A DNA stretch of 64,000 bases from an uncultured Actinomycetes bacterium (GTDB taxonomy: Bacteria > Actinomycetota > Thermoleophilia > RBG-16-64-13), in contig CAWDXC010000009.1 of assembly GCA_963806155.1 (NCBI GenBank), positions 198,520 through 262,519 on the forward strand. The letters are read 5' to 3'. Shown here piece after piece: positions 4,926-64,000 of the stretch (the first letter of the stretch is position 1; each line of letters opens with the position of its first letter). Under the pieces are notes generated by a model. The model made no database searches. It was not told where the DNA came from and worked only from the letters and a program-made list of their open reading frames with translations. The position numbers were made by a program, and so were the translations under genes.

Positions 4926-5116
4926 ATCTAGCTCGCTTCCTGCCATTTAACTCGTGGCTCCGTGTTGGCTTCGCGCACAGGGCAATTCGATGTCGGCTTC
5001 GCCTGGGTGCCGCCCTGGTATCACCTCGGTCGACCCTCGTTACTTCGCCAAGTATTAGTCGCCGGAGAACGCACTAGACTGCTCCGCCGAGGAGTTGCTC
5101 GGCATGCCAGATGCGC

Positions 5117-11445: not shown

Positions 11446-11663
11446 TAGGTGCTCCATTCCTCACTGGGTCTAGTACTGCGCTTGCTAGGGCCGGGCCCGG
11501 GTGGCGTTCGACGGGCACATCCTTGGTCGAGACGAGCATGTCCCCATCCTTCTCCTGTAGCAGTATCCACTTGAGCCAGGCGGCGTCATCGCGCTCCGGC
11601 TGGTCCTCGCGCAGGCGTCAGCCCCCGCTCTCTATCCACGGCGATATGCCTTAGAAGTCCCCG

Positions 11664-13094: not shown

Positions 13095-13144
13095 GACTCC
13101 CCCTTGGTGCTGTGCTTGTAGACCCGCTGCTCCGAAGAGCACTT

Positions 13145-21624: not shown

Positions 21625-21767
21625 GTCAATGCTCCCGGCGGTCAAGATTCCCTGAGACGTGGTCTTGAGCCACGTGGTCTCCAGCGTCGCGGGTAGGCGA
21701 GCCCACTCGGCGGCCTGAGGAACGCTGGGGGCGCGGCGGCTCACGCCGCCGCGCCCCCAGGTTCGAC

Positions 21768-23318: not shown

Positions 23319-23331
23319 TTCCCAACGCCCC

Positions 23332-27615: not shown

Positions 27616-27647
27616 GACTTGAGATGTTCTTTCAAACTTGCTAGTGT
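27616..27647 (+). promoter_or_regulatory. candidate promoter: GACTTGAGAT (-35 TTGAGA), 17-nt spacer, -10 TAGTGT
   Basis: shared architecture with promoters at 41333, 50875 and 63294 (minus strand); implies ~185-nt leader before ATG 27839. Confidence 0.45.
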
Positions 27648-32624: not shown

Positions 32625-34121
32625 ATGAGCGAGGCGAACGAAACTCACGAAGACCGCAGCCGGGAAGAACAAGAGGAGAAGAGGCCGGCGAGACCGGTCA
32701 GCCGGCGTGATTTCCTGAAGATCGCCGGAATCGCCGGAGCGGCTGTGGGGGCCGGCGCCGGCCTGGGCGGCCTACTCGCCGCCTGCGGCGAAGAAGAAAC
32801 GACCACGACGACCGCGGGCGAGACGACCACCACCACGACCGCCGCCACCACAACGACCGCCGCCGCCGCGACGACCACCGTCAGCACTGCGGCAGAGACC
32901 GGCCGCGAGCTCAAGCTCGGTTTTGTTACGCCGACAACCGGGGCCCTGGCCTCCTTCGGCGTGCCCGACGGATACTGCGTCGAACGGGCGAAAGAGGTGA
33001 TCGCGGACGGGATCGTATGCGGTGACGGACTGAAGCACCCTGTCACAATCAAGGTCGTTGACAGCCAGTCAGACCCCAACCGGGCGGCACAGGTAGCAGG
33101 CGACCTCATCCTAAACGACAAGGTGGATATTATCCTCGTAGCCTCCGCACCCGACAACGTCGTGCCGGTGTCCGGTCAGGCTGAAGCGCTCGGGACACCG
33201 TGCCTCTCCTGCGACGCCCCCTGGCAGAGCTATATGGAGCCTCGGACCGGAGGCGACCTGACGGCGGTGTTCAAGTGGACCTATCACGTCTTCTTTGGTG
33301 GGGAGGACAGCTTCGACATCATGGCCGACGTGTTTCACCGGTTGCCGACCAACAACGTCCTGGCTTTGCTGTATTCCAACAGCTCCGACGGCAACGCCGT
33401 ACATGATCTCGAACTGCCGGTGCTCGAGGAGATGGGCTTCACCGTTGTCGATGGTAGTGGTTTTTCGGAAGGCACCGAAGACTTCACCTCGATAATCAGC
33501 ATGTTCAAGAAGGCGGGGGCCGAGCTGGGGCACGGTCTGCTTTCTCCCCCGGACTTCATCAACTTCTGGAAGCAATCGATCCAGCAGTCCTGGCTGCCAA
33601 AAACGTCCATATGGGGCAAAGCCCTACTTTTCCCCCAGTCCATGGAAGCGATCGGCCCCATCGGCTACGGTCTCTGTGCGGACCAGTGGTGGGGAGCGGA
33701 CTGGCCCTACAAGTCGGCTCTACTTGGAGAGACCTGCCGGCAGTTCGCAGATGACTATGAGGCCCGGACCGATTCGCAGTGGACACAGCCCGTGGCTCAC
33801 TTCATGCTCTTCGAGTGGGCCTATGACGTACTCAGTCGAACGGCCAGCGTGGATGACAAGGACGCGATCATGACGGCGGTCAAGAGCACCAAGCTTGAGA
33901 CCATTCTCGGCACCGTCGATTTTTCAGCGCCGGTGGAGCCGGTCGGACCGCCCTGGGCCGCGGGTCCACGGCACGTCGTGGAGAACGTCTACAAGATCAA
34001 CCATCCTGCCGGCCAGTGGATCAAGGGCACGAAGTGGCCCTTCGATTTGGTTACCGTCAGCAATGCCGGGTGTCCCGCCATTCCCGTGGCAGCCGAGCTA
34101 CAGCCCTATACCGTGAGCTGA
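32625..34121 (+). CDS. ABC transporter substrate-binding lipoprotein, PBP1 family, paralog 3
   Basis: GGAGGGGGAC SD; RRDFLKIAGIAGAAVGAGAGLGGLLAACG lipobox; Thr-rich linker. Confidence 0.85.
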   Translation: MSEANETHEDRSREEQEEKRPARPVSRRDFLKIAGIAGAAVGAGAGLGGLLAACGEEETTTTTAGETTTTTTAATTTTAAAATTTVSTAAETGRELKLGFVTPTTGALASFGVPDGYCVERAKEVIADGIVCGDGLKHPVTIKVVDSQSDPNRAAQVAGDLILNDKVDIILVASAPDNVVPVSGQAEALGTPCLSCDAPWQSYMEPRTGGDLTAVFKWTYHVFFGGEDSFDIMADVFHRLPTNNVLALLYSNSSDGNAVHDLELPVLEEMGFTVVDGSGFSEGTEDFTSIISMFKKAGAELGHGLLSPPDFINFWKQSIQQSWLPKTSIWGKALLFPQSMEAIGPIGYGLCADQWWGADWPYKSALLGETCRQFADDYEARTDSQWTQPVAHFMLFEWAYDVLSRTASVDDKDAIMTAVKSTKLETILGTVDFSAPVEPVGPPWAAGPRHVVENVYKINHPAGQWIKGTKWPFDLVTVSNAGCPAIPVAAELQPYTVS

Positions 34122-35732: not shown

Positions 35733-37298
35733 TCAGTCCTTGGCCGAGATGTACATCGCAGGTTCGGAGACCCCGTTGGGGTCGAAAGTCTTCTTGATCT
35801 TCCGCAACCACAGATGGTAGTCGCCCAAGTGGGGACCCCACTTGTCGTGCGCGCGGTCGCCCCACACCGTCACTGGAGCCGTGTAGCATCTCGCGATGCC
35901 CAGGTCTTCGCACGTGTCGGAGAATTCCATGAGGTCTCTCCAGCCCTCCCCCGTCGGGTGGGTCATGACGAGTTGTTCCGCGTGGCCGGTGTGGCCGTTC
36001 TCGTAGACCATCCCTATGACGCAGTCGAAACCGTCGTCCGCCCTGACGGTGCCCTTGGCCTGCAGCGCCTTCTTGAGCTCCATGCATTCCAGCATGAACT
36101 TGGTGGACGTCTGGAACATGGCAGAGTCACCGATCAGACCGTGGAACCTGCCTGTCGCTCGGAATCCCTCCCTGACGCCCCCGCTGAACCTGGTCTCGCA
36201 CCAGAGGATCTCCCGCTTGACCTCAGGCTTCTCGATATGGCTCAAGAACACGCCGCCGGTCTCCTCCAGAATCTGGGCCAGGACCTTCTGCCTATAGCGA
36301 AACTCTGGGATGGTGGCACCTGAAATGATCACTAGGAACCCAGGACGTCCGTTGGACTCCTCTTGCATCTGCCTGAGCAGGACGTCTGCTTCGCTGCCGG
36401 TACCGGTGAAGGCCTCGGCCATCATCGGCAGGGGCAGGCGGAAGATCATGGTGGCTATCTCGCTCTCCCCCATCTTGATCGCGGCTTCGATCAGCTTCTC
36501 CCAGTCGGGGAAGAGGGGATGGTGGATCTCGAAGTTCGGCGGCATCTCTTTGAGGCTGTAGCTCGGAGAAACACCCTCCAGTTCGGGCTCCGGCGGACCA
36601 TAGTACGGGTACAGCTTGAGCCCGGCCTTGGTGAAGATCCCCAGACCGCCCATGACCGCCTGAGTGCCTCGTATGACTCCTCGCAGGGAGGGGCCGGGGC
36701 CGTCGCCGCAGAACCAGCCGGCGCCGGCTCCTGACGATCCGAACTTGAGCAGCTCGCCGTCGGGAGTCACCCATTCCACAGCCAGGGTGTTGCGGTCTCC
36801 GCAGCTGGTGCTCACGCCGCCGGACCCGGTGCCCTGGTGGGCCGTGATGGGCATGGCGCTGGTATTGCACCCGGCCCCGATCATATGGAGGTTGAGACCT
36901 TTCTTCATGGCCTCGGCCTGCAGGAGGGCACAGGTGACGTAGGGTTCCACGACTGCATACATGCTCTTCTCGTTCAACTCGATGATACGGTTGAAGCGGC
37001 GCATGTCCACATGGATGGCGTCGTCATCGAGACCGAGCGCGCTGTAGAAGCCCCAGCCGTTGCTGATGGCCTTGTACCTGACCTTGTACTTGTTGCAGGC
37101 TCTGACTATCGCCTGCACTTCCTCGGTCCTCCCCGGCATGAGAATGGCTCCGGATCTCGGGAGAAAGGGAGTGCCCGTAGATATCTCCGCGCCCCATTCG
37201 AACGCATAGGAGTCGAGTACGGCCGGTTCCTCAGAGATGTAGTCCGGTCCTACGATCTCCTCGAGGGCCTTGTATGCGTCCCTACTGTTTAGAGCCAT
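35733..37298 (-). CDS. FAD-binding oxidoreductase, PCMH/VAO-type (type A paralog, intact)
   Basis: 521 aa, ~55% identical to 21768..23318 product. Confidence 0.8.
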   Translation of the reverse strand: MALNSRDAYKALEEIVGPDYISEEPAVLDSYAFEWGAEISTGTPFLPRSGAILMPGRTEEVQAIVRACNKYKVRYKAISNGWGFYSALGLDDDAIHVDMRRFNRIIELNEKSMYAVVEPYVTCALLQAEAMKKGLNLHMIGAGCNTSAMPITAHQGTGSGGVSTSCGDRNTLAVEWVTPDGELLKFGSSGAGAGWFCGDGPGPSLRGVIRGTQAVMGGLGIFTKAGLKLYPYYGPPEPELEGVSPSYSLKEMPPNFEIHHPLFPDWEKLIEAAIKMGESEIATMIFRLPLPMMAEAFTGTGSEADVLLRQMQEESNGRPGFLVIISGATIPEFRYRQKVLAQILEETGGVFLSHIEKPEVKREILWCETRFSGGVREGFRATGRFHGLIGDSAMFQTSTKFMLECMELKKALQAKGTVRADDGFDCVIGMVYENGHTGHAEQLVMTHPTGEGWRDLMEFSDTCEDLGIARCYTAPVTVWGDRAHDKWGPHLGDYHLWLRKIKKTFDPNGVSEPAMYISAKD

Positions 37299-37311: not shown

Positions 37312-38897
37312 TCAATCCTTGGCCGAGATGTACATCGCTGCCTCGGAGACGCCGTTGGGATCGAAGGTCTTCTTGATCTGGCGTAGCCACAGATGGTAGT
37401 CGCAGAGATGCGGACCCCATTTGTCGTGCGCGCGATCGCCCCAAACGGTCACCGGCGCCGTGTAGCGTCCTTTGATGGCTAGGTCCTCGCATCTGTCGGT
37501 GAATTCCATGAGGTCTCGCCAACCGGCCCCGGTCGGGTGGGTCATGACGAGCTGTTCCGCGTGACCTGTGTGCCCGTTCTCGTAGACCATCCCGATTACG
37601 CAGTCCGGACCGTCATCGGCCCTGATGTTGCCTCGAGCCTGGTACTCCTTCTTGAGTCTCCATGCATTCCAGCATCAGTCTGGTGGAGGTCTGGAACATG
37701 GCGGAGTCGCCGATCGAGCCCAGGAACCTCCCCACCGCCCGGAATGCTTCTCTCACAGCGCCGCTGAACCTGGTCTCCGACCAGAGAATCTCCCTCTTGA
37801 CCTCGGGCTTCTCGATGTGGCTCAAGAGCACGCCGCCCGTCTCCTCCAGGATCTGGGCGAGGACCTTCTTCCTGTACTCGAACTCCGGCATGGTGGCGCC
37901 GGAGATCATCACCAGGAAGCCGGGGCGGCCGGCGGACTCCTCCTGCATCTGCCGGAACAGCACCTCCGCGTCACTGCCGGTGCCGGTGAAGGCCTCGGCC
38001 ATCATCGGCAGGGGCAGCCGGAAGATCATGGTCGCTATCTCACTCTCCCCCATCTTGATGGCGGCTTCGATCAGCTTGTCCCAATCGGGGAAGAGGGGAT
38101 GGTGGATATCGAAGTTCGGCGGCATCTCCTTGTACGAGTAGGAGGGCGAAACACCCTCCAACTCCGGCTCGGGCGGGCCGTAGTAGGGGTATAGCTTCAC
38201 CCCAGCTTTGGTGAAGATCCCCAGGCCGCCCATCACACCCTGAGGACCGTGTATCAGTCCTCGTAGGGAGGGGCCCGGACCGTCGCCGCAGAACCAGCCG
38301 GCGCCGGCTCCCGACGGAACCGAACTTGAGCAGCTCGCCGTCGGGAGTCACCCATTCCACCGCCAGGGTGTTGCGGTCTCCGCAGCTGGTGCTCACGCCG
38401 CCGGACCCGGTACCCTGATGAGCCGTGATGGGCATGGCGCAGGTGTTGCTACCCGCTCCGATCATGTGCACGTTCAGGCCTATCTTCATCGCTTCGGCCT
38501 GGAGTATGGCGCAGGTGACATAGGGTTCCACGACGGCGTACATGCTCTTCTCGTTCAGTTCGAGGATGCGGTTGAACCTCCGCATATCCACGTGGATGGC
38601 ATCGTCGTCCAGGCCGAGCGCGCTGTAGAAGCCCCAGCCGTTGCTGATCGCCTTGTATCTGACGTTGTATTTGTTGCAGGCTTTGACGAGCGCCTGCACT
38701 TCCTCCGTAGTGCCCGGGAGCACGATGGCGCCCGACCTGGGAAGGAACGGTGTGTCGGTGAAGAGTTCTGCGCCCCACTGGAACGCATAGGAGTCCAGTA
38801 CGGCCGGTTCCTCAGAGATGTAGTCTGGCCCGACAATCTCCTCGAAAGCCTTGTAAGCGTTCCTGTTGTTCAGAGCCACCGCCGGCATCTCCTTCAA
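37312..38897 (-). pseudogene. tandem duplicate of the 35733..37298 FAD oxidase, two 1-bp insertions (frameshifts)
   Basis: three ORF pieces (38040..38897, 37613..38236, 37312..37590) ~90% identical to the intact upstream copy; DNA alignment shows extra bases near 38290 and 37670. Confidence 0.7.
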
Positions 38898-45115: not shown

Positions 45116-46594
45116 ATGTCGACCGACTTGGAAGACAACAATGCAGGCATCAGTAGGAAGGCCGGCGTCAGCCGGCGCGAATTCTTGAAGATTGCCGGCG
45201 CCGCCGGCGCAACAGTAGGCTTGGGCGCAGGATTGGGCGGGCTGGTGGCCGCCTGTGGAGAGGAAGCCGAGACGACCACTACGGCCGGTGTTACCACCAC
45301 GGCCGGTGTAACCACCACAGCCGGTGTCACCACCACAGCCGCCCCTACCACAGTCAGTAGCGCCGCCGAAGTCGGGCGTGAGGTCAAACTCGGTTTCATC
45401 ACCCCGATTACCGGCGGCCTGGCTCCTTTCGGAGCGACCGACCAGTACTGCGTCAAGCGGGCGCAGGCGGTGATCGGTGACGGGCTGGTAAGTGGCGACG
45501 GTCTGAAACACCCCGTCACCATCAAGCTCCAGGATAGTCAGTCGGACCCGAACCGGGCGGCCCAGGTCGCAGGCGACCTCATCATGAACGACAAGATAGA
45601 CCTTATGCTCGTGGCCTCGACGCCCGATAACGTTGTCCCGGTGGCCGGGACGTGTGAGGCCATGGGGATGCCGTGCATCTCCTTCGACTGCCCCTGGCAG
45701 GGCTTCTTCGCCCCCCGGACCAACGGCGACTATTCAATTGTGTTCAACTGGACCTATCACGTCTTCTTCGGGGCGGAAGAGGGGACCGCCATCATGCTGG
45801 ACCTTCTGAGCCAGTTGCCGACCAACAAGATCGTGGCCATGATGTATCCCAACGACGCCGACGGCAACTCCCTTCACCCTATCCATGCTGCGGCGTTCGA
45901 GGCGGCGGGCTTTACCCTCGTTGATGCCAGCGGTTTCCCGGTCGGCCTGGAGGATTTCACGGAGCAGATCAGCATGTTCAAGAAGGCGGGCGCCGAACAA
46001 GGGCACGGCGTGATGCCTCCGGCGGACTTCACCAACTTCTGGAAACAGTCGATCCAGCAGGGCTGGACGCCGAAGATGTCCATGTGGGCCAAGTCGCTGC
46101 TCTTCCCGGAGTCCCTCGAAGCTCTGGGGCCCATCGGCAACAATCTCTGCTGCGACCAGTGGTGGGGACCGGACTGGCCCTTCACGTCTACCGTCCTTGG
46201 ACAGACTTGCCGACAATTCACAGACGACTTCGAGGCCGAAGCGAAGCGGCAGTGGACCCAGCCCTTGGCCCACATGATGCTCTTCGAGTGGGCCATCGAC
46301 TTGCTCCAGCGGACGGTCAACGTGGACGACACGAACGCTATCATGGCGGCGATCAAGACCACGAAGCTGGACACTATCGCCGGCCCGGTCGATTTCTCGG
46401 CTCCGGTCGAACCGGTCGGCCCACCGTGGGCCGTTGGTCCGAGGCACATCGTGGAGAACGTCTACAAGGTGGGCCTCTGCGCCGGCCAGTGGCGCATGGG
46501 CGGCAAGTACATGTTCGACCTGATCAGCGTCAGCAATGGCGGGCACCCCCTGATCCCGGTGCAGGACAAGGCGCTGCCGTATACCGAGGCCTGA
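45116..46594 (+). CDS. ABC transporter substrate-binding lipoprotein, PBP1 family, paralog 4
   Basis: lipobox LVAACG; 15-bp tandem repeats encode (TTTAGV)x3 linker; ~65% identical to paralog 3. Confidence 0.85.
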   Translation: MSTDLEDNNAGISRKAGVSRREFLKIAGAAGATVGLGAGLGGLVAACGEEAETTTTAGVTTTAGVTTTAGVTTTAAPTTVSSAAEVGREVKLGFITPITGGLAPFGATDQYCVKRAQAVIGDGLVSGDGLKHPVTIKLQDSQSDPNRAAQVAGDLIMNDKIDLMLVASTPDNVVPVAGTCEAMGMPCISFDCPWQGFFAPRTNGDYSIVFNWTYHVFFGAEEGTAIMLDLLSQLPTNKIVAMMYPNDADGNSLHPIHAAAFEAAGFTLVDASGFPVGLEDFTEQISMFKKAGAEQGHGVMPPADFTNFWKQSIQQGWTPKMSMWAKSLLFPESLEALGPIGNNLCCDQWWGPDWPFTSTVLGQTCRQFTDDFEAEAKRQWTQPLAHMMLFEWAIDLLQRTVNVDDTNAIMAAIKTTKLDTIAGPVDFSAPVEPVGPPWAVGPRHIVENVYKVGLCAGQWRMGGKYMFDLISVSNGGHPLIPVQDKALPYTEA

Positions 46595-54431: not shown

Positions 54432-56945
54432 GTGGTGGAAGAGGTCCTGACCCAGTGCACTTCAGGCGGAGCGGTCCAGGTCCATGTCGAGGATGGGGTG
54501 ATCACCAAGATCCGGCCGCTCGTCTTCGACGAGACAGATGCCCCTGGGTGGACGCTCGAGGCCAGAGGTAGAGAGTTCAGTCCTCCGCGCAAGACAACGG
54601 TGATGCCGTACGTCGTCGCGGAGAGGAGCCGCATCTACTCGGAGAACAGGATCAAGTATCCCTGCAAGCGAGTGGATTTCGATCCCAAGGGGGAACGGAA
54701 CCCCCAGAACAGAGGGAAGTCCGCCTACGAGCGCATAAGCTGGGACGAAGCGTTCGACATAGTCGCGGGCGAGATGCAGCGAGTGCGCGAGATCTACGGG
54801 CCGGCCGCCATAGCTGCCTCCACCGGATCGCACCACAACTGGGGTCTGCTGTTCTACAAGATGGGACCCTTCGGCCGCTTCTTCAACATGCTCGGCTACA
54901 CCGAGATCGTGGACAACCCGGACAGCTGGGAGGGTTGGCACTGGGGCGCCATCCACACCTGGGGCTACTGGTGGCGGCTCGGGGTCTCGGACAACTACGA
55001 CATGCTCGAGGAGGCCCTCAAGAACACCGACCAGGTGGTCATGTGGTCGGTGGACCCGAATACAACCACCGGCTATCCGGGCCAGGATTCGCTCCTGTGG
55101 CGGATATGGTTGAAACAACTGGGCATCAAGCTGATCTTCATCGATCCCTGGTGCAACTTCACGGCCGGTATGCTGGCGGACAAATGGTTCGCCCCGCGGC
55201 CGGGCACGGACGCGGCTCTGGCTCAGGCCATCGCCTACGTGTGGATCAAAGAGGGCTCCTACGACAAGTGGTTCGTCGAGAACCGGACCGTGGGCTTCCC
55301 GGAATTCGAGAAGCACATCCTGGGCGAGCAAGACGGGATAGCCAAGACGCCGGAGTGGGCCGCGGAGATAACCGGCATCCCGGCCCGCGACATACAGGCG
55401 CTCGCTCGCAGTTGGGCCTCGAAGCGGACCATGCTTGGGTGTGGGGCTATGGTCGGGCTCGGGGGCGCGTGCCGGGGAGCGTACGCGACCGAATGGGCCC
55501 GGATGATGGTGCTCCTCATCTCGATGCAGGGCTTGGGCAAACCGGGTGTCAACGTCTGGGGCGGGTGCGGAATGGGCCAGCCCGCCGACTACTCCTTCCG
55601 GTTCCCCGGCTATTCCTCAGCCGGTTGGGACGCCTTCAACCTCGTCTCCGAGAAGAGAGCGATCAATAACGTGTCCCAGAAGATCTGCCGTCTGCTCCTG
55701 CCCGAGGCCATCCTCGCTCCACCGGTGGAGTGGGATGGGGAGGGCTTCTGCGGGTTTGCGCTCGACCAGCAGTTCACTCACCACACCTACCCCGAACCCG
55801 GGACCACCGAGATCAAGCTGCTCTACCGGCACGGGGGCTCCTACATCTCCACCATGACCGACACCAGCCGGTTCGTCCGGATGTATCAGAGTCCCAAGCT
55901 CGAGTGCGTGGTCAGCCAGGATTGCCACTGGCAGAGTGAGACCAAGTTCGCCGACGTGATCCTGCCGGCCAGCACCAATTTCGAGCAGGAGGACATCTGT
56001 GAGTGGGGGAATCCCGGTGGATACGCGGAAAACAAGGGTGGAGAGAACTTCCGCGTCGTCATCAGTCAGAAGAAGTGCATCGAGCCCCTCTGGGAATCGA
56101 AGCCGGACTGGGACATCTACTGCGAACTGGCCAAACGCTTGGGCTTCCTCGAGGACTATACAGAGGGCAATACGCGGGAGGATTGGATCAGAAAGCTCTT
56201 CGACTCCACCTCGCTGCCGGAGCACGTGAGCTACGAGGACTTCAAGAAGAAGGGCTACTTCGTGGTGCCTCCGCCTTCGGGCGACTACAAGCGCACCGTC
56301 TCCAACCGCTGGTATTACGAGGGCCGCAAGTGCGACGTCCCCGACTCGTTCAATCCTACGATCAGGGGCGAGGGCACGGACAAGCTGGGCACCTACAGCG
56401 GCAAGATCGAGTTCGTCTCGCAGAGTCTGCTGGAGCACTTCCCGGATGACGAAGAACGGCCGCCGCTGCCCCGGTACATCCCCAGCTGGGAAGGGTACGA
56501 CAGCGCGCTCGCCAAGAAGTACCCGCTGCAGCTCCTCACGACACACGCCCGCTTCTCGTTCCATACGCAATACGACAACAAGACCCCGTGGCTGGACGAG
56601 ATCCCGGTGCACCGCGTCATCAAGGACGGGTACGCTTATCTTCCGGTCCGGATCCATCCTTCGGATGCCGCGCCGCGCAACATCCGCCACGGAGACATCG
56701 TGAAGCTCTTCAACGACAGGGGTTCCGTGCTGTGCATCGCTCAACTCACCGAGCGGGTCAAGCCCGGCGTCCTTCACACCTACCAGGCGGGAGCCAAGTA
56801 CGATCCGCTCGAGCCGGGCAAGGCCGGAAGCACCGACAAGGGTGGCTGCGTCAACATACTGACCCCCGGGCGGATGATCTCGAAGCACGCGCCAGGCATG
56901 GCCAACAACTCCTGCCTGGTGGAAGTGGCGAGGAGTGATGTCTAG
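54432..56945 (+). CDS. molybdopterin oxidoreductase large subunit, transhydroxylase-like (alpha4, ~50% identical to alpha3)
   Basis: 837 aa; AAGGAG SD; only 47 bp after beta3, so probably co-transcribed. Confidence 0.8.
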   Translation: MVEEVLTQCTSGGAVQVHVEDGVITKIRPLVFDETDAPGWTLEARGREFSPPRKTTVMPYVVAERSRIYSENRIKYPCKRVDFDPKGERNPQNRGKSAYERISWDEAFDIVAGEMQRVREIYGPAAIAASTGSHHNWGLLFYKMGPFGRFFNMLGYTEIVDNPDSWEGWHWGAIHTWGYWWRLGVSDNYDMLEEALKNTDQVVMWSVDPNTTTGYPGQDSLLWRIWLKQLGIKLIFIDPWCNFTAGMLADKWFAPRPGTDAALAQAIAYVWIKEGSYDKWFVENRTVGFPEFEKHILGEQDGIAKTPEWAAEITGIPARDIQALARSWASKRTMLGCGAMVGLGGACRGAYATEWARMMVLLISMQGLGKPGVNVWGGCGMGQPADYSFRFPGYSSAGWDAFNLVSEKRAINNVSQKICRLLLPEAILAPPVEWDGEGFCGFALDQQFTHHTYPEPGTTEIKLLYRHGGSYISTMTDTSRFVRMYQSPKLECVVSQDCHWQSETKFADVILPASTNFEQEDICEWGNPGGYAENKGGENFRVVISQKKCIEPLWESKPDWDIYCELAKRLGFLEDYTEGNTREDWIRKLFDSTSLPEHVSYEDFKKKGYFVVPPPSGDYKRTVSNRWYYEGRKCDVPDSFNPTIRGEGTDKLGTYSGKIEFVSQSLLEHFPDDEERPPLPRYIPSWEGYDSALAKKYPLQLLTTHARFSFHTQYDNKTPWLDEIPVHRVIKDGYAYLPVRIHPSDAAPRNIRHGDIVKLFNDRGSVLCIAQLTERVKPGVLHTYQAGAKYDPLEPGKAGSTDKGGCVNILTPGRMISKHAPGMANNSCLVEVARSDV

Positions 56946-57776
56946 ATGACCAGATACGGCATGGTAGTCGATATCGTCAAGTGCAGTGGCTGTTACAACT
57001 GCTTTCTAGCCTGCAAGGACGAGCACTGCGGCCATGATCAGCCGGGGTACGCCGCCCCTCAGCCGATGACCGGACACTCCTGGATGCGGCTGGTGGAGAC
57101 TGAGCGAGGCTCGTATCCAAAGGTCAAGGTCGCCTACACGGCCGTCCCCTGCATGCACTGCCAGGAAGCCACCTGTCTCGAGAAGGCCGAAGGCGGAGCG
57201 GTCTATCGCCGGGCCGACGGCATCGTCATGATCGACCCGGTGAAAGCGAAAGGGCAGAAGCAGCTGGTCTCTTCCTGCCCCTACCGGGTCATCTACTGGA
57301 ACGAAGAGCTAGACCTGCCGCAGAAGTGCACGTTCTGTGCCCATCTCCTCGATGCCGGCTGGAAAGAGCCCCGGTGCGTGGAGCTATGTCCCGCCGGCGC
57401 TCTGACCTTCGGGGATCTGGACGATCCCGAGAGCGAAGTGGCGAAATTGGTCTCCGGGCAGAGGACGGAGGCCCTACATCCGGAGTTCGGGCTGAAGGAG
57501 AACGTCGTCTACGTCAACCTGCCCAAGAAGTTCATAGCCGGGACCGTGGCGTTCGGGGATACGGACGAATGCGCCCCCGGGGTGACCGTCACCGTGGGCA
57601 TTGACGGCCGGCAGCAGACGGCCATGACGGACGAATTCGGCGATTTCGAGTTCGAAGGTCTGGCCGAGGGGCAGGACTACACCGTGATCCTTGCCGCGGA
57701 CGGATACCGTTCCCAGGAATTGAACGTGAAGACACTGAGGGACATCTACCTGGGAGTCATAACGCTCGAGAAGTGA
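56946..57776 (+). CDS. 4Fe-4S ferredoxin beta subunit with C-terminal beta-sandwich domain (beta4)
   Basis: ATG directly after alpha4 TAG; same Cys pattern. Confidence 0.8.
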   Translation: MTRYGMVVDIVKCSGCYNCFLACKDEHCGHDQPGYAAPQPMTGHSWMRLVETERGSYPKVKVAYTAVPCMHCQEATCLEKAEGGAVYRRADGIVMIDPVKAKGQKQLVSSCPYRVIYWNEELDLPQKCTFCAHLLDAGWKEPRCVELCPAGALTFGDLDDPESEVAKLVSGQRTEALHPEFGLKENVVYVNLPKKFIAGTVAFGDTDECAPGVTVTVGIDGRQQTAMTDEFGDFEFEGLAEGQDYTVILAADGYRSQELNVKTLRDIYLGVITLEK

Positions 57777-57969: not shown

Positions 57970-59446
57970 TTAGTAGGTAAGCGGCTGAAGAGTCCCATCC
58001 AGCACGACGATATCGGGGTCGGTGCTGAAGACGAGCAGCTTGTCGATGGGCCATTTGCCCTCTGTCGCCTTGACCCACTGGCCGCAGGCCTGCGGCGGGC
58101 TGCAGCCGTTGATGAACGGATGATGGGTCATGTCCTTCACCGGCGCCGTGAAGTCGATCTGACCTAGACTCGTGTCCAGCTTCGTCGCACCGATGGCGGA
58201 CGGCGATCCCCGCCTTGTCGTCGACGTTGGTGACGCGTTTGAACACGTCGGCCGCCCATTCGAAGAGGACGAGGATGATCACGGCCTCGCTATACTGGCT
58301 GCCGCTGAAGGCTTCGTACTCGTCCGCGATCTGCTGACAGTTCATCCCCGTCAAAGAGTCGACGAACTTCTGGCGCGGAGTCCAGGTGCCGGCGCTGGAG
58401 AGGTTGTAGCCGATATCGCCCATGGAGAGCACGCCCTCCGGGAAGATCAGGCCTTTGTGACCGATAGCCACCACCGGCTGGAATGCCTGCTGATGGGACT
58501 GCGTCCAGAAGTTGGTGAAATCGGGCGTGAGCATGACCGCGAGCAACAGCTCACATCCCGCCTTCTTGATCGCGGTGATCTGGGCTGTGTAGTCCTCAGC
58601 CCCCGGGGTGTAGAGATCGGTCATCACCACCTGATAACCGGCCTGCTCGAGGATGGGCGGCCCCCATTGGGCCCAGTTGTTGCCGTCCACATCGTTGGCG
58701 AGCACGAGGCCGACGATCTTGTTGCTCGGGACCTGCGGGAGAAGCCCGGTGTAGTTGACCGTGGTGAGCACGTCGTCGAAGGCATAGGTATAGGTCCATT
58801 TGAAGCCCTCTGCCGGCATCTTCCTACCCACGGTGAACGCGTGCACCTCGGTCCAGTTGGAGATCAACGGGCATCCCATCGATTCGGCGACATCACCGGC
58901 CGGGTTCACGGTATCGGGGGTGACCGCCGCCATGACGAGGTCGACCTTGGTGTTCTGGATGAGGTCGCCGGTGACCTGCGCCGCCCGGTTCGAATCGGAC
59001 TGGGTATCCACCAGACTGACCTCAAAGGAGTGCATCATCTTGTCGCCGAGGACGAGGCCCTCACCGATAGCATCCTCGAAATGCTTCTGCGCCCATTTGC
59101 CCGCGGCTGCGAACGGCGCCAGCGGACCGGTGATGGGTACGACATAGCCCAGCTTGATCGGCCGGCCGACCTCTGGTCCGGCGCTCACGGTGGTCGTGGA
59201 CGCGGGGGCCGTAGTGGTAGTGGACGCAGGAGCCGTGGTGGTGGTGCTCGCCGGAGCGGTCGTGGTTGTTACTTCCTCTTCGCCGCAGGATGCGAGGAAG
59301 GTGCCCAACCCTCCGCCGATCCCGATAGCGCCGCCCGCCACGGCGGCAAGCCTGAGAAACTCGCGGCGACTCACCGGTCTCGTGCCCGTAGGCTCTTCGA
59401 TTCCTTCGCGGTCGTGTTGGTCGTCAGATCTGTCGCGCTCGTTCAC
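57970..59446 (-). pseudogene. ABC transporter substrate-binding lipoprotein, PBP1 family, paralog 5, frameshift near 58215
   Basis: N-terminal 400 aa in ORF 57746..59446 frame; conserved C-terminus (...KLDTSLGQIDFTAPV...LQPLTY) found in another frame ending at TAA 57970; 21-bp tandem repeats encode (TTTAPAS)x3. Confidence 0.65.
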
Positions 59447-59552: not shown

Positions 59553-60491
59553 TCAGCCCTCGAGGATCGGCGGCAGCGGCGGTGCGTCTGTCGCCAGGCG
59601 GTCGATCAGTTCGTTGTAACGACTCATCCGCGAATCAATGTCTATCTCCCCCCTTCTTGCCGCCTGAACGGCTAGGAACAACCACAGGTGCGTCTTCAGC
59701 AGGTCCTTGTGGCTGTACTTCTTGTCGGAGAACATGCGAAAGATCGTCTGCTCGTAAGCACCCAAGAGGCTATGGGCGACAAGCTCGTCGGGGACCGCGG
59801 GTGGCTTCGCGCCTCTCGCCGAGGTGTCGGCGAAATCTCTGGTAATGCGCTCGATCACGCCTTCGAGAGCTTCCTCGATGGGTTTGCGCAGTTCGCTATC
59901 GTCGTGTGTCCTCTCCACCCGGACAAGGGCGAGGCCCGACGAGCCCAGATCGAAGACATGAAGGCTTGCGAATGCCAGCCAAAGCAGTCTCTCGGCGGGG
60001 TCCTCCGTCGAGTCGCGTTTCGAGTCCCCATACGTGAGGCTCCAGGCCATCATCACCGAGACGCATTCGGCAAGAAGTCGCCGTTTGCTGGGAAAATGGC
60101 CGTAGAAGAGGCTTGCCGTTATCCCGAGCTTCTTCATGATCGTAGTCACGTGGGTGCTCTTGTAGCCTTTGGTGGTGAACTCCGCCACGGCCACCGCGAG
60201 GATGCGGTTGTGGACCCGCTGGTACTCCTGCGCGACCAGATCGACTCCGGCTTCATTGGCGCGATGGACCCGGGGCTCCAGTTCGGTCTCGATCTCGTCG
60301 AGAGACAGGCCGGCCTCCTTGAGCTCCCCGATCTTCTTGAGGATCTCCGCGTGCTCCTCGGTGTAGAGCGATCGGCTGGCGGCGGTCTTCTGAGGCAGGG
60401 GAAGCAGCCCCTGCCTCAAGTAATAGTGGATGGTGGTCCGCGGCACCCCCGTGGCCCGTTCGAGCTCCCCGATGGAAAGGACTTTGACCAC
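59553..60491 (-). CDS. MerR-HTH / TetR-like fusion transcriptional regulator, paralog 3
   Basis: GTG start with AGGAG SD, immediately downstream of the AOR stop; LSIGELERATGVPRTTIHYYLRQGLLP. Confidence 0.7.
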   Translation of the reverse strand: MVKVLSIGELERATGVPRTTIHYYLRQGLLPLPQKTAASRSLYTEEHAEILKKIGELKEAGLSLDEIETELEPRVHRANEAGVDLVAQEYQRVHNRILAVAVAEFTTKGYKSTHVTTIMKKLGITASLFYGHFPSKRRLLAECVSVMMAWSLTYGDSKRDSTEDPAERLLWLAFASLHVFDLGSSGLALVRVERTHDDSELRKPIEEALEGVIERITRDFADTSARGAKPPAVPDELVAHSLLGAYEQTIFRMFSDKKYSHKDLLKTHLWLFLAVQAARRGEIDIDSRMSRYNELIDRLATDAPPLPPILEG

Positions 60492-60499
60492 GCTCGCTC

Positions 60500-62410
60500 C
60501 TACGGCATCGCCGACGCCACGTCTTGCAGTCCGAGCGAGCGCAGGGTCTCCTCTTTGGGGATCCCCGTCTCCTCGTCCCACCCGCGCAGCTGATAGTACT
60601 CCTTGAGCATCTCCGTGAACCTCGCCTTGTCGAGCCGGTTGCCGGCCATGTCGACCACGGCGTCCCCTGGGCCGGGGACCAGCATCCCGTGCGTGCCGGA
60701 CCCACCCCAAGGCTTGGTGAAGTTGTATTCCAGAGGATAGTCCGCGGCCGGGACCTCGCGACCTTCCCGGATCAATATCGCCCGCTGGAGATTGGCGATG
60801 ATCTCTGCGCATCTTTCGAGCTCCTCGGCCGGACGTCCGGTGACCGCCGAATAGAGCTTCGCTTCCAGATCGGGGTCTCCGACGTGATCGGGAGTGACGA
60901 AGGAGTAGATGATGGGCCAGGTGAAATCGCATAGGCCCAGGCTGTCCATTAGATAGACGCGGTTCTGGATGAGCTTGGCCGCCAGCGCCTTGCCCTCGTA
61001 CGTGTTCAGGGCCCCCGCCTCCTCACTTCCCCAGAAAGCCTTGGCGATGTTGCGGAATTCCCTGTTCGTGATCGGAGTGCTGCCGGGGTCCAGCTGGTTG
61101 AGGGTCCAGGGGACCAGCGCGAAACCCGTGTCGTGCAGGAGCGGCTGGTGGACCCGAGGCTCCATGTAGTAGAGCAGGGAATGCACGATGTTGAGCCGGG
61201 GCGGTTGCAGCTCGAACTGGCCGATAGGCGCGACTTCCTCGCCCATGAGCGCACGAGCCACCGGTGACACTTCCTCCATCTTGGCAACTCTGGCCATACC
61301 TTCCGCCAGCAGGTCCCCGAAACCCTCGCGATGGGCGACCGCATGGAGGAGCTTCTCCAGGAACTCCTGGGTACCGATCTCGGCCAGGGGCAGGCCGGTC
61401 TCGGCCTCGGTCAGCGCCCCCGCCTTGTGGCACGCGTAGAGCCAGTTGATCATGCTTCGCAGTTCGAAGGTGTCGATGCAATAGTCGTTGGCCAGATCGG
61501 GCGCGTTGAAGAAGGTGTCCACCGGCTCGTCATCCCGCCCATACATCCAGGGCAGGTAGTACTCCATGGTCTGGCAGTGGCGCATTCCCTCGAGCCGCTT
61601 GTCATATCTGTATACATTGCGGATGCACTTGGCCCCGCACAGGTAACAGCCTCCCTTTCCGATGACCTCCACCACCTGTGCGTGACCGGTGCCGAGCACA
61701 TCGGGACCGATCGCCAGATGAAGCCTTTGGTTGATCTTCACTGTGTGACGGTTGAGCTCTCTGAGCCTCTCGGGATCCGCCGCGGAGACCCTCTGCGAAC
61801 CCCTGACGGCGATGCCTTTGAGGTTCTTGGAGCCCATCACGGCGCCAAAACCGCAGGAGAGGGCCGATTCGTGGGAGGCATAGGCCGTCGCCGTGCGGAC
61901 CAGGTTCTCTCCCGAGACCCCGATGGCGATGAACTTGGCGTCTGGGCCGTGGAGCTCCTGCAGCCGTTGTCCCGTCTTGAAGGCGCCCAGGCCCCACAGG
62001 CCGGCAGCCTCCCGGACCTCCACCTTTCCGTCGTCGATCCAGAGATACACAGGACTCGCGGCCTTGCCCGTCACGACCAACCCGTCGTAGCCGGCCTTCT
62101 TGATCTCGGCCCCCACGTACCCGGCGATGTTGCCGTAGCAATAGCTCTCCGGCAGCGCGCCGGGTGACTTCGCGACTACACATACCACCGTGGCTGCCTG
62201 AGCCCGCGAGGCCACCAGGGGGCCGGTCATGAAGATCAGCGGGTTTTCCGGGTCGAACGGCTTGATCCCGGGGTCCGTCATCTCCCAGTAGAGCCGAGCC
62301 GCGATCCCGCGGCCGCCGACGTAGTCCTCGATGTACGGCTCAGTGGGCGATTCCCGGGTCTCTGACGTACCAAGGTCGACGAAGAGGATCTTCCCCATCC
62401 ATCCGTCCAT
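60500..62410 (-). CDS. aldehyde:ferredoxin oxidoreductase (tungsten/molybdopterin AOR family)
   Basis: N-terminal MDGWMGKILFVDLG...GGRG AOR signature; 636 aa; Cys-containing Fe-S region GKGGCYLCGAKC. Confidence 0.85.
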   Translation of the reverse strand: MDGWMGKILFVDLGTSETRESPTEPYIEDYVGGRGIAARLYWEMTDPGIKPFDPENPLIFMTGPLVASRAQAATVVCVVAKSPGALPESYCYGNIAGYVGAEIKKAGYDGLVVTGKAASPVYLWIDDGKVEVREAAGLWGLGAFKTGQRLQELHGPDAKFIAIGVSGENLVRTATAYASHESALSCGFGAVMGSKNLKGIAVRGSQRVSAADPERLRELNRHTVKINQRLHLAIGPDVLGTGHAQVVEVIGKGGCYLCGAKCIRNVYRYDKRLEGMRHCQTMEYYLPWMYGRDDEPVDTFFNAPDLANDYCIDTFELRSMINWLYACHKAGALTEAETGLPLAEIGTQEFLEKLLHAVAHREGFGDLLAEGMARVAKMEEVSPVARALMGEEVAPIGQFELQPPRLNIVHSLLYYMEPRVHQPLLHDTGFALVPWTLNQLDPGSTPITNREFRNIAKAFWGSEEAGALNTYEGKALAAKLIQNRVYLMDSLGLCDFTWPIIYSFVTPDHVGDPDLEAKLYSAVTGRPAEELERCAEIIANLQRAILIREGREVPAADYPLEYNFTKPWGGSGTHGMLVPGPGDAVVDMAGNRLDKARFTEMLKEYYQLRGWDEETGIPKEETLRSLGLQDVASAMP

Positions 62411-62443
62411 ACCAGCAACCTCCCCTGGCCGCGGCCGCGCCGA

Positions 62444-63199
62444 CTAGTCGATGTACTGCTCGAAGGCCTCCAGATCTGCCGCCGGTAATCCTTCCCTAAA
62501 AGTCTTAAGCTTGGCTTCACCCTTGGGTGTAATGGAGGTGACTCCGTCGACGGTCTGCACGTAGCCCATAAGTTCAAGCTCTTCCCTCAGAACGCGGACC
62601 ATCTGGGTACCCAGCGGAGGATAGATGCCTTCTATCTCCTCCTTCGCGAAGGTATCAAGGATCTCGTCCGACGCTACCCCTCCCCTCGTGGCGAGCTTCT
62701 TGAGGATGGCCATCTCCCTTCTGAAGTAAGGAGTGTCGTAGCCCTTCTCGCTGAGGTCGAACGCCTCGAGCTTCAGGAGCATCGAGGTCCTCGTATCGGG
62801 GCAGATAACGGTCGGCTCACTCTGAAGATTCTCTCTTTCGCTTGGCGGCCAAGCAAAGACCTCGGGATTGGTGAGATTGGCCATATCGAAGGGAGGAGGG
62901 ACTACCGTCTTGAGCACGTTCCTGAAACCAAGCCCGTCGTACTTCTTCATTTCGTCGTCATAGACGCTGAGTGAGCAGTACCAGAAGGGATAATAGGAAA
63001 TCCACTCCACGTACCTTGGCCCGGCCTGGTGAAGGGCCTCGACCTTGGGGACTATCCTGCTCCACACATCCGGGCACAGTCTCCCGTGATAGCTCTCACC
63101 ATCGAAGATGACTTCATCGCCCACCTTATGCTTGAAATGACAGGGATAGACTTCCTCATTGCCCAAGAAAGCGACGACGGTGGCTTTGACCTGAAACAC
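62444..63199 (-). CDS. TIGR04076-like domain protein (paralog of 4179..4925)
   Basis: MFQVKATVVAF...YPCHF...GRLCP; 33 bp upstream of AOR, so likely same operon. Confidence 0.6.
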   Translation of the reverse strand: MFQVKATVVAFLGNEEVYPCHFKHKVGDEVIFDGESYHGRLCPDVWSRIVPKVEALHQAGPRYVEWISYYPFWYCSLSVYDDEMKKYDGLGFRNVLKTVVPPPFDMANLTNPEVFAWPPSERENLQSEPTVICPDTRTSMLLKLEAFDLSEKGYDTPYFRREMAILKKLATRGGVASDEILDTFAKEEIEGIYPPLGTQMVRVLREELELMGYVQTVDGVTSITPKGEAKLKTFREGLPAADLEAFEQYID

Positions 63200-63293: not shown

Positions 63294-63325
63294 AACCTAT
63301 CACTCACAGAAATGAATCTCAAGTC
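63294..63325 (-). promoter_or_regulatory. candidate promoter (minus strand): GACTTGAGAT, 17-nt spacer, -10 TAGGTT, with CTGTGAGTGA in spacer
   Basis: exact GACTTGAGAT decamer also at 27616..27625; ~90 nt upstream of ATG 63199. Confidence 0.45.
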
Positions 63326-63460
63326 ATCTAGCCGCGTCCCATAGCCAGACCGGGCGACACCGCGTGGAGCGGAAGATGATCGGCGGCCCGAGGGAAGCGG
63401 GCGGCGGCGGCGGTCCCTCCTGGGAACGCCGCCGCCCCCAGTGCAGCAGTATCTCGCGCC

Positions 63461-64000
63461 CTATTTCTCTACGAAGATGACCCCCAGGCTGAGGCTGTCG
63501 ACGAGGTCGACCTGCTGCGCGACCGGCTTGTAGCCGGCGGCGCTCAGGACCAAGTCATAGCGACCCGGCGCCAGGCCGTCGAAGATGAAGTCGCCGTAGT
63601 TGTTCGTCGCCAGATCGGCGACTTTGACGCCCTCCAACTGCAGGATGACAACCGCGCCTTCGGCGCAGTCATCAGTGTCTTTGTAGGCAACGGTGCCGCC
63701 TAGGAAGGCCTTGGTCCAACGGTGGAGGTTCTTGTACCAGACCCGGGGGTTGGTCCCCCAGTCCGCCTGATACGCCTCCAGACCCTCCGCACTCACCCGG
63801 ACCGCCATGTCGTCATCCTCGGCCAGGACGAGCTTGAGCGCCCCGGTGGGGCACACCTGGGTGCAGCGGGTCTCGGTCCAATCGTCGTCGATCAGGTGGG
63901 CGCAGCCGGTGCACTTCTGGGGAAGGCCGGCTTCCTCGTTCCAGTAGATGACGTCATAAGGACAGCTGCCGACGATCTGCTTCTGGCCTTTTGCCTTCTT
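63461..64000 (-). CDS. 4Fe-4S ferredoxin beta subunit with C-terminal beta-sandwich domain (beta5, 5' end outside window)
   Basis: C-terminal 131 aa plus upstream in-frame QKCTGCAHLIDDDWTETRCTQVCPTGAL running to window edge; implies a fifth alpha gene beyond 64000. Confidence 0.7.
   Translation of the reverse strand, partial: KKAKGQKQIVGSCPYDVIYWNEEAGLPQKCTGCAHLIDDDWTETRCTQVCPTGALKLVLAEDDDMAVRVSAEGLEAYQADWGTNPRVWYKNLHRWTKAFLGGTVAYKDTDDCAEGAVVILQLEGVKVADLATNNYGDFIFDGLAPGRYDLVLSAAGYKPVAQQVDLVDSLSLGVIFVEK

Follow-up and report, generated by a model that had tools for sequence, protein, structure and literature searches.

Our principal finding is that a putative operon of an uncultured soil-type bacterium encodes an AOR/WOR-family enzyme that is, on balance, probably not a conventional AOR. 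It would instead be a Cys-ligated enzyme devoid of the acid-base residues used on aldehydes, performing a non-aldehyde redox reaction and accompanied by an accessory protein and a sensing regulator. The operon lies in a 64,000-nt stretch of DNA (the window) from an uncultured Actinomycetes bacterium of the Thermoleophilia lineage RBG-16-64-13 (GCA_963806155.1, contig CAWDXC010000009.1, positions 198,520-262,519 of the forward strand). Judged from sequence, the enzyme is best read as a member of a third Cys-type clade, as yet uncharacterised, among the W/Mo-bis-pterin enzymes. Functions are known for only a few of the ~92 AOR/WOR clades. This one, with thousands of environmental members and a setting in polyphenol-transformation loci, would widen W/Mo enzyme chemistry and would point to an anaerobic step, so far overlooked, in the turnover of aromatics or polyphenols in soil.

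The genes predicted between 59553 and 63199 are real: the ORF map places all three (251-aa protein, 636-aa AOR-family protein and MerR+TetR fusion) on the minus strand (Table 1), separated by 33 nt and 8 nt, respectively, which suggests a single transcript. Relatives with 92% and 77% identity keep the order accessory-AOR-regulator-SBP, and one relative carries a read-through fusion. Together with the 8-nt gap, this agrees with the original prediction that the AOR-family gene is co-transcribed with its own regulator, and the two very probably share one transcript. The mechanical ORF for the regulator (60932..59553) overlaps the AOR gene, and its MerR_1 domain begins only at residue 153. The likely start is not 60932 but the GTG at 60491, which lies 8 nt past the AOR stop behind a GGAG motif; the resulting 312-aa length agrees with the gene calls for its homologs in the related loci L001 (324 aa) and L002 (319 aa), where the position is also conserved. 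The protein matches MerR_1 (4.4e-17) and TetR_N (2e-12), with a weak EthR_C match (0.006) in its C-terminal domain. It is indeed a paralog of the locus regulator, as had been proposed, since the window holds three MerR+TetR fusions with 58-61% mutual identity.

Table 1. Features of the operon and its surroundings in the window.
Feature	Coordinates	Strand	Remarks
Pyrogallol-hydroxytransferase-like alpha (837 aa) and beta (276 aa) pair	54432..57776	+	Convergent; AhtL-like_1st, Molybdopterin, Fer4_11
Peripla_BP_6 (LivJ-type) binding-protein gene	57973..59446	-	Pfam 8.3e-26 and NCBIfam; 1-nt frameshift
312-aa MerR_1 + TetR_N fusion regulator	59553..60491	-	Domains; GTG start; RBS; paralogs
636-aa AOR/WOR-family protein, uncharacterised clade	60500..62410	-	AFOR_N + AFOR_C
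251-aa accessory protein	62444..63199	-	N-terminal TIGR04076 domain, C-terminal PadR-like winged helix
Promoter-like element TTGAGA-N17-TAGGTT	63294..63322	-	Inside block conserved with L006; putative function
GC-rich hairpin	63399..63439	-	~20 nt past beta-subunit stop
Pyrogallol-hydroxytransferase beta-like Fe-S subunit gene, 3' part (179 codons)	63461..64000	-	Open to window end; upstream neighbour

The gene 106 nt downstream of the regulator had been labelled SBP5; it encodes a LivJ-type protein with a Peripla_BP_6 domain and no SBP_bac_5 match. In its product a cysteine comes after a Tat-like signal peptide, as in lipoproteins, and the gene is interrupted near 58205-58215 by a 1-nt frameshift, at which a tblastn alignment with the intact 483-aa ortholog from L002 splits into two frames. 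Its membership of the operon is uncertain. We envisage one transcription unit that would run from the accessory protein through the AOR-family enzyme to the regulator, possibly continuing into the binding-protein gene, and that would be inserted among pyrogallol-hydroxytransferase-like molybdoenzyme genes of a Thermoleophilia-like, soil-type uncultured Actinomycetota. The phenol-locus setting is well founded: such genes flank the operon on either side, and for the alpha subunit of the convergent pair, the match to pyrogallol hydroxytransferase (4v4c_A) has an E-value of 7e-253. The product of the upstream gene, which runs past the window end, has a CarboxypepD_reg domain and is 47% identical to the beta subunit in the window, and a beta-like gene occupies the same position in L001.

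Membership of the 636-aa protein in the AOR/WOR family is clear, as originally predicted. It is full length, shares 92% identity with a protein from a MAG and matches AFOR_N (PF02730, 1e-60) and AFOR_C (PF01314, 3.5e-52) in Pfam. Its [4Fe-4S] ligands C255, C258, C262 and C494 align with PfAOR C288, C291, C295 and C494, with no variation across 121 sequences, and the pterin-binding DxxGL(C/D) motifs are found as D309-Y-C-I-D313 and D489-S-L-G-L-C494. The first of these is degenerate, with C, S or A in place of G; the clade conserves D309 as well as D489, the latter position being Asp or Glu. No signal peptide is evident in the N-terminal sequence, and the enzyme would be a cytoplasmic protein carrying a W- or Mo-bis-metallopterin and a [4Fe-4S] cluster. 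The original prediction specified tungsten or molybdenum and an anaerobic or microaerobic lifestyle; the choice of W versus Mo, and an anaerobic organism, are points that we infer. Neither tup, mod, moa or moe genes nor a Moco riboswitch were found within the 64-kb window.

The feature that sets this protein apart is Cys279, which is invariant in the clade and aligns with BamB Cys322 and YdhV Cys336 by three methods (HMMER profile, MAFFT L-INS-i and hhalign), the distance from this Cys to the EYY motif differing by one residue between alignments. In BamB, which acts in aromatic-ring reduction, and in YdhV, this Cys is a ligand of the metal, a trait described as restricted to these two clades (PMC12096430). 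Cys279 is predicted to ligate the metal in the same way, which differs from AOR sensu stricto, FOR and GOR, defined by having no protein ligand to the metal. Aldehyde-oxidising AORs are further defined by the second-shell residues Thr243, Glu313, Tyr427 and His448 (PMC12096430, PMC13328260), among which only His448 is kept (His426 in our protein). The Glu313 position is an invariant Tyr (Tyr285), the Tyr427 position is variable (Gln, Phe, Ala or Met; Gln402 here) and the segment bearing Thr243 is missing. Canonical AOR genes in the fetched loci, one of which matches PfAOR at E 1e-125, served as an internal control: they keep PEYES and have no Cys at the Cys279 position. Different chemistry is probable because a BamB-type Cys is present and most residues for aldehyde oxidation are lost; some AOR-like acid-base chemistry is still possible because equivalents of Glu311, Tyr312 and His448 are kept.

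Phylogeny points the same way. In a neighbour-joining tree, built from the N-terminal domain only and leaving out GAPOR, WOR4, WOR5 and AorB, canonical AOR and FOR are split from the window clade, BamB and YdhV in 100/100 bootstraps, while the window clade and BamB alone group at only 48%. By HMMER, the N-terminal domain scores slightly better against AOR and FOR than against BamB. Neither analysis places the enzyme with FOR, one of the two placements (FOR or GAPOR) that the original prediction had named as speaking against it; the PDB matches included no GAPOR chain. Compared with AOR and FOR from P. furiosus and bacterial AORs (1AOR, 1B25, 9MQX, 9G7J, 8C0Z), the N-terminal domain is 33-41% identical, and the cluster cysteines and pterin motifs are common to all, whereas the protein from the window has an extra Cys-bearing insertion in addition to its second-shell losses, and the catalytic domains hardly align by HMMER. 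Similarity to E. coli YdhV (Class V WOR, clade 41 Mo-bis-MPT) amounts to 28-29% identity over almost the entire length. Among NCBIfam models, PRK09849 comes closest, and Glu313 is missing in both proteins; YdhV, at 700 aa, has additional insertions. YdhV works with a Tat-exported ferredoxin, YdhY, and membrane subunits (PMC13328260); compared with the E. coli ydh operon, a Tat-signal WorS (YdhY-like) and membrane subunits are absent from the operon in the window.

These observations weigh differently on the possible functions of the enzyme. The original prediction was that of a conventional broad-spectrum aldehyde:ferredoxin oxidoreductase, which would oxidise aromatic aldehydes or reduce aromatic acids arising in phenolic catabolism. 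The retained Glu311, Tyr312 and His448 equivalents are compatible with it, as are the carboxylate-type uptake systems (TRAP or LivJ-type) that adjoin clade members and the fact that canonical AOR genes too are preceded by the same accessory protein. We nevertheless regard it as unlikely: three of the four second-shell residues are gone, an invariant Cys occupies the BamB/YdhV ligand position, the bipartition with full bootstrap support leaves the enzyme outside the canonical group, and for YdhV and CsWOR41, two tested proteins of Cys type or related to it, no aldehyde activity is known (PMC13328260). The proposed aldehyde intermediates are not supported. That the protein is instead a BamB-type class II benzoyl-CoA reductase, as the shared Cys, the lack of the catalytic Glu313, the common fold and [4Fe-4S] motif, the weak sister grouping and the aromatic-catabolism surroundings might suggest, is largely refuted and hardly credible, since identity is ~30% (29-33% over residues 1-400), the ~50-residue BamB insert with the invariant Zn and proton-relay residues Glu251, His255, Glu257 and His260 is a gap in the window clade, Glu311, Tyr312 and His448, all reported absent in BamB, are retained, and neither homologs of the electron-bifurcating BamC-I partners nor a CoA ligase or other CoA-ester context was seen in the operon or in the loci of relatives.

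The reading that we favour is that of a non-conventional, Cys-ligated AOR, which would catalyse a ferredoxin-linked redox step, likely a reduction, of a non-aldehyde substrate. This substrate is plausibly aromatic or phenol-derived, and may enter through a LivJ-type or TRAP system and be recognised by the co-transcribed regulator through its TetR-type ligand domain. The supply of low-potential electrons is left unexplained because no ferredoxin-like or bifurcating partner is encoded near the AOR-family gene. Members of the clade come from uncultured Actinomycetota, Chloroflexota and Desulfobacterota, and the substrate class is only weakly constrained because the gene contexts of distant members are heterogeneous (nitroreductases, beta-oxidation genes and Moco maturation genes). 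A more far-reaching proposal, which we put forward as speculative, is that this third widespread Cys-ligated clade catalyses a new low-potential non-aldehyde reaction (e.g., reductive dearomatisation or dehydroxylation of free phenolics) in soil members of these three phyla, together with a new two-domain partner combining an XdhC-like module and a winged helix. At a practical level, the pipeline label "aldehyde:ferredoxin oxidoreductase" probably misleads efforts to reconstruct the metabolism of Dehalococcoidia, Thermoleophilia and related MAGs.

The 251-aa protein encoded upstream of the enzyme is the second element of interest, and its family is an untouched target that may represent either a factor for cofactor maturation or a new type of sensor-regulator. 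It had been described as TIGR04076-like, which holds for its N-terminal part, the NCBIfam match covering residues 1-68 of 251 only (42.5 bits versus a cutoff of 33), and not for its C-terminal ~85-100 residues, which correspond to a PadR/MarR-like winged helix. Pfam gave no family match for this protein. C20, H21, C42 and C133 are invariant in the family, and the best fold matches of the TIGR04076 domain are XdhC-family proteins, a tentative resemblance; none of 36 family members matched the XdhC families PF02625 and PF13478, even with the limit set at E <= 10. Unlike in the XdhC/CoxF Mo-cofactor insertion proteins (2WE7, 3ON5), the Rossmann-like XdhC_C domain was not detected and a winged helix is present instead. 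To our knowledge, XdhC serves xanthine-oxidase-family enzymes and not bis-pterin AORs. Our leading guess is that the protein is an accessory factor for cofactor or metal-handling maturation, possibly of more than one kind of AOR-family enzyme. It adjoins the enzyme gene in 5 of the 7 distinct loci of the AOR-family clade from the window, and of 41 genome loci, 11 have an AOR-family gene within ~115 nt downstream. Over half of the accessory-protein loci lack any pterin enzyme within 8 kb.

Two other roles deserve consideration. The protein could be a PadR-like transcription factor whose Cys3-His N-terminal domain senses metal, redox state, oxygen or a phenolic compound, and which governs the expression of oxygen-sensitive catabolic genes, the AOR-family gene among them. 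We see this as a possible, lesser alternative. Its C-terminal domain has the winged-helix fold and C-terminal helix of PadR-type regulators, the neighbours over the 41 loci are very diverse (SDR, URO-D-like, SnoaL, MFS, AKR and flavodoxin-like proteins), as for a recruited regulator, the gene is frequently the first behind a long intergenic region, and the window has a second paralog with no AOR beside it. It differs, however, from PadR regulators such as VanR (5Z7B) by its lack of a Pfam PadR match and by the 150-aa Cys/His domain ahead of the winged helix, a domain with a possibly XdhC-like fold. Furthermore, the family is tight (only 160 representative clusters) and unusually conserved for regulators, with 45-60% identity across phyla, conserved basic residues are absent from the putative recognition helix and wing (mean net charge of the domain ~0), the gene is strongly enriched directly upstream of AOR-family genes from two different clades, and a regulator is already present in the operon. 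Another option is a redox-active small subunit that uses a Cys3-His metal or Fe-S site to pass electrons to or from the enzyme in place of the ferredoxin-like WorS; it would account for the four invariant residues, for the tight upstream coupling to the enzyme gene and for an operon without a WorS-type ferredoxin gene. This is improbable in view of the many loci, the majority, that carry the accessory gene without any AOR-family gene, the lack of an Fe-S family match or of fusions to AOR proteins, and a winged helix that is unexpected in an electron carrier.

Two further features lie upstream of the accessory gene. The hairpin that follows the beta-subunit gene has a minimum free energy of -38.8 kcal/mol (z = -3.56), with 0/200 shuffles folding equally well, is also kept in the related locus L006 and is likely a transcript boundary. 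The promoter-like element shares a TTGAGA-N4-TTTC core with the promoter region beside another MerR-TetR paralog; only 7 instances of the pattern exist in the whole window, all between mapped ORFs, and TTGAGANNNNTTTC has 2 matches versus 0.04 expected.

The main finding of this analysis is that the 636-aa enzyme, a member of the AOR/WOR family, can be placed on sequence grounds as an uncharacterised third Cys-type clade. This placement follows from the alignment of its Cys279, from the loss of second-shell residues, and from its being neither an ortholog of BamB (a class II benzoyl-CoA reductase subunit) nor a YdhV-type protein (the Class V WOR of Escherichia coli). The predicted assignment to the AOR family is upheld by AFOR_N (1e-60) and AFOR_C (3.5e-52) matches, and the accompanying prediction of pterin dependence holds as well; the window clade (the enzyme and its homologs) keeps the C-terminal D-x-x-G-L-C motif, together with the four [4Fe-4S] cysteines. 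A profile of this clade scores similarly against solved structures (263, 240 and 234 bits for AOR, 258 for FOR, 233 for BamB, 219 for AorB, 192 for WOR5 and 150 for WOR83), with good alignment confined to the N-terminal domain. Cys279 does not vary among 121 clade members, and three methods (HMMER profile-sequence, MAFFT L-INS-i and hhalign profile-profile) align it with BamB Cys322 and YdhV Cys336. According to a 2025 review, BamB and YdhV share this cysteine as a conserved protein ligand of the W/Mo ion and other AOR/WOR members lack it (PMC12096430), while second-shell Thr243, Glu313, Tyr427 and His448 define aldehyde-oxidising members (PMC12096430, PMC13328260). For comparison with Pyrococcus furiosus AOR (PfAOR), its sequence was rebuilt from a full-length HMMER alignment and the canonical profile was then aligned to the clade profile. 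In the clade, the segment with Thr243 is absent, Glu313 is an invariant Tyr285, Tyr427 is variable (Gln, Phe, Ala or Met) and His448 is an invariant His426; Glu311 and Tyr312 correspond to Glu283 and Tyr284, both mostly retained. With these substitutions and Cys279 present, the aldehyde chemistry of the original prediction is probably wrong. An internal control comes from other AOR-family genes that adjoin homologs of the 251-aa protein: they retain PEYES and have no Cys at the Cys279 position, and one of them matches PfAOR at E 1e-125. In an N-domain NJ tree, canonical AOR/FOR split from the window clade, BamB and YdhV in 100/100 bootstraps, and the window clade groups with BamB specifically in only 48. 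We infer metal ligation by Cys279, the identity of the metal (W or Mo) and the substrate; should a non-aldehyde activity and the ligation by Cys279 be borne out, the enzyme would be notable for tungsten and molybdenum enzymologists.

Two known relatives were considered and rejected. BamB shares the aligned cysteine, but identity to the enzyme is 29-33%, the BamB insert with Glu251, His255, Glu257 and His260 is missing, and there are no BamC-I genes nearby. YdhV likewise shares the cysteine, but its Tat-ferredoxin and membrane partners are missing here. Our literature searches on "BamB-like" AORs and on AOR plus pyrogallol hydroxytransferase returned nothing functional.

An exact-sequence look-up of the enzyme returned no record. 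Homologs number thousands at about 60% identity, nearly all metagenomic, and come from Actinomycetota (Thermoleophilia, Gaiellales), Chloroflexota (Dehalococcoidia), Desulfobacterota and Acidobacteriota. The closest, 92% identical, is in an "uncultured Actinomycetes" MAG with the same gene order: alpha and beta subunits of AthL (pyrogallol hydroxytransferase), 251-aa protein, enzyme, MerR-TetR regulator, binding protein and a convergent AthL beta/alpha pair. A 77% relative retains the order from 251-aa protein to binding protein. On a 1.39-Mb contig of a Chloroflexia MAG (L005/L013), the gene for the 251-aa protein is followed by two tandem Cys-type enzyme paralogs, directly adjoined by the cofactor-maturation genes XdhC, MobA-like, YqeC and FdhD.

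The four successive minus-strand genes (see table) are real, as originally predicted; corrections concern the family of the binding protein, where the regulator starts and how the first gene product is divided into domains. A ribosome-binding site, GGGGAGG, lies in the 33 nt that separate the gene for the 251-aa protein from the enzyme gene. We rejected the 459-aa ORF of the regulator because its MerR domain starts so late; the true start is most likely a GTG that lies 8 nt beyond the TAG codon ending the enzyme gene, giving a 312-aa protein, consistent with the 324 and 319 aa called for the homologs of the 92% and 77% relatives, respectively. Spacing, strand and conserved order suggest, in agreement with the predicted co-transcription with the regulator, that the first three genes form one transcript. 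This is reinforced by P0002, a 960-aa protein from an 8154-nt ENA contig in which the reading frame of an 87% identical enzyme continues into that of the MerR-TetR regulator; whether a genuine fusion or an assembly error, it shows tight coupling of the two genes. The unit probably has a promoter of its own, given the hairpin and the conserved promoter-like block upstream. A generic promoter/terminator scan gave one promoter-like match, intragenic, and nothing useful. The upstream beta-like gene is not truncated; it continues off the window edge.

Features of the unit and of the surrounding locus
Feature	Position	Strand	Remarks
251-aa protein	63199..62444	-	ORF, first of unit
636-aa enzyme	62410..60500	-	ORF, AFOR_N + AFOR_C
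Regulator, mechanical ORF	60932..59553	-	MerR domain begins only at ORF residue 153
Regulator, likely start GTG 60491	59553-60491	-	GGAG ahead of GTG; MerR_1+TetR_N
Binding protein	57973-59446	-	Start 59446; Peripla_BP_6
Pyrogallol-hydroxytransferase beta-like gene, 3' part	upstream of 251-aa gene		Extends past window end
Stable GC hairpin	63439..63399	-	-38.8 kcal/mol, z = -3.6; 3' of beta-like gene
TTGAGA-N17-TAGGTT	63322..63294	-	Inside block conserved with closest relative
TTGA[CG]A-N16-18-TAnnnT sites	27491, 27619, 32436, 41333, 46679	+	Candidate
TTGA[CG]A-N16-18-TAnnnT sites	63322, 18343	-	Candidate
Other MerR_1+TetR_N fusions	26324-27259; about 31408-32439	-; +	Like the regulator, each adjoins a catabolic operon
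Other LivJ-type proteins	11664-13142; 15355-16842; 32625-34121; 45116-46594	-; +; +; +	Peripla_BP_6
Second 251-aa paralog	4185-4946	-	46% identical; no adjacent AOR gene
URO-D-family fragment	5117-5890		
S15-family hydrolases	6322-8064; 9682-11457	-; -	CocE/NonD type
FAD_binding_4 oxidases	37315-38879; 35733-37298	-; -	Tandem duplicates
638-aa ORF	20830-22746	-	Artefact
FAD_binding_4 gene	21768-23396		Overlapped by 638-aa ORF

The role of the 251-aa protein can be read in two ways. It had been described as TIGR04076-like, which holds for its first 68 residues (42.5 bits against an NCBIfam cutoff of 33), whereas its C-terminal part is a winged helix; Pfam gives no family match, and the literature on TIGR04076 offered nothing functional. 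The family is compact and strongly conserved (45-90% identity across phyla, nearly all 248-252 aa), with invariant residues, including C20, H21, C42, C133 and several Asp, concentrated in the N-terminal 150 aa. Among 1.84 billion proteins it forms only 160 representative clusters, with no fusion to the enzyme and a longest match of 253 aa. In a Foldseek search with its AF2 model (pLDDT 88), the sole meaningful match was the XdhC-like 3on5 (probability 0.99); Pfam, scanned at relaxed settings with 36 members of the family, gave no XdhC signal, only weak winged-helix noise (S19e), and a PDB sequence search returned only S19e at E 0.6. As for its neighbours, 11 of 41 genome loci have the start of an AOR-family gene no more than about 115 nt downstream, and 19 of the 41 have an AOR-family or Mo-bisPGD gene within 8 kb. 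Of seven distinct loci that represent the window clade, five encode the 251-aa protein right beside the enzyme, and it accompanies Cys-type as well as canonical AORs. In the remaining loci it is found beside SDRs, URO-D-like proteins, SnoaL, MFS transporters, AKR and flavodoxin-like proteins. Genomic association thus points both ways. We weakly favour a cofactor- or metal-handling accessory because of the XdhC-like fold, the enrichment beside pterin enzymes and the high conservation. The protein may instead be a PadR-like sensor-regulator, as the winged helix and the diverse neighbours would suggest, but the presumed recognition helix and wing have no conserved basic residues, which leans slightly against DNA binding. 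In the window, a second paralog sits between a URO-D-family fragment, immediately upstream of it, and a gene for glucose/sorbosone dehydrogenase downstream; homologs in two other loci (L003 and L022) likewise have URO-D-like neighbours. A 109-aa gene upstream of an AOR in a further locus (L049) was rejected as a homolog, its only match being a weak one to Fer4_2, a 4Fe-4S binding motif.

The regulator, correctly predicted to be a MerR/TetR fusion and a paralog of the locus regulator, is one of three such fusions in the window (58-61% pairwise identity), each with two different HTH domains within one chain, an architecture for which our literature search found no characterised example. The 64 kb contain just seven copies of the motif TTGA[CG]A-N16-18-TAnnnT, all intergenic and upstream of operons, and these sites are a candidate promoter/operator set of the locus. 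Sites 63322 and 32436 share a TTGAGA-N4-TTTC core (2 hits observed versus 0.04 expected), with a variant at 27619; as all three adjoin MerR-TetR paralogs, the core is a candidate operator. In the scheme that we propose, a ligand, probably some phenolic or aromatic molecule imported via LivJ-type binding proteins, would bind the TetR-type domain and control the promoter at about 63.3 kb; with the regulator translated from the unit's own mRNA, the unit would control its own expression. The enzyme would act on a non-aldehyde substrate at a Cys-ligated W/Mo centre, with its [4Fe-4S] cluster as the route by which electrons enter or leave, probably from or to free ferredoxin, and the 251-aa protein would help cofactor loading or provide a second regulatory input. 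We infer every step of this scheme, and everything functional here, from sequence and models.

The downstream binding protein, predicted as SBP5, belongs to Peripla_BP_6 (LivJ type) and not to SBP_bac_5; its N-terminus is lipoprotein-like, with a Tat-like signal peptide and then a cysteine. Compared with an intact 483-aa ortholog, its gene carries a 1-nt frameshift near 58205-58215, at GCCGTCCGCC; in the 92% relative the gene is broken elsewhere, at about aa 301. The breaks look like long-read indel error or independent decay. The window encodes five such paralogs, all orphan, with no adjoining ABC permease/ATPase genes; the Tat-like signal and a Thr/Pro-rich linker were checked for the ones at 45116-46594 and 57973-59446.

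"Phenol-transformation locus" is a fair description of the surroundings, which hold five or more alpha/beta pairs resembling pyrogallol hydroxytransferase (one of the alpha subunits matches P. acidigallici AthL, 4v4c_A, at E 7e-253), one further Mo-bisPGD enzyme, GlcD/GlcF-like FAD_binding_4 and CCG modules, and ETF alpha and beta. Within the 64 kb there are no tup, mod, moa or moe genes, and Rfam and tRNA scans found no Moco riboswitch, tRNA or RNA genes. Two S15-family hydrolases may be esterases supplying phenolic substrates to the locus; another (L027, 1486-3348) lies next to paralogs of the 251-aa protein in the isolate Neomoorella sulfitireducens SLA38, which has two such paralogs. The tandem FAD_binding_4 oxidases are 86-88% identical, the upstream copy being divided over three reading frames by two apparent frameshifts. 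Finally, the 638-aa ORF is artefactual: the SDR takes up just the C-terminal ~250 aa, and the N-terminal part overlaps a FAD_binding_4 gene in a different frame.
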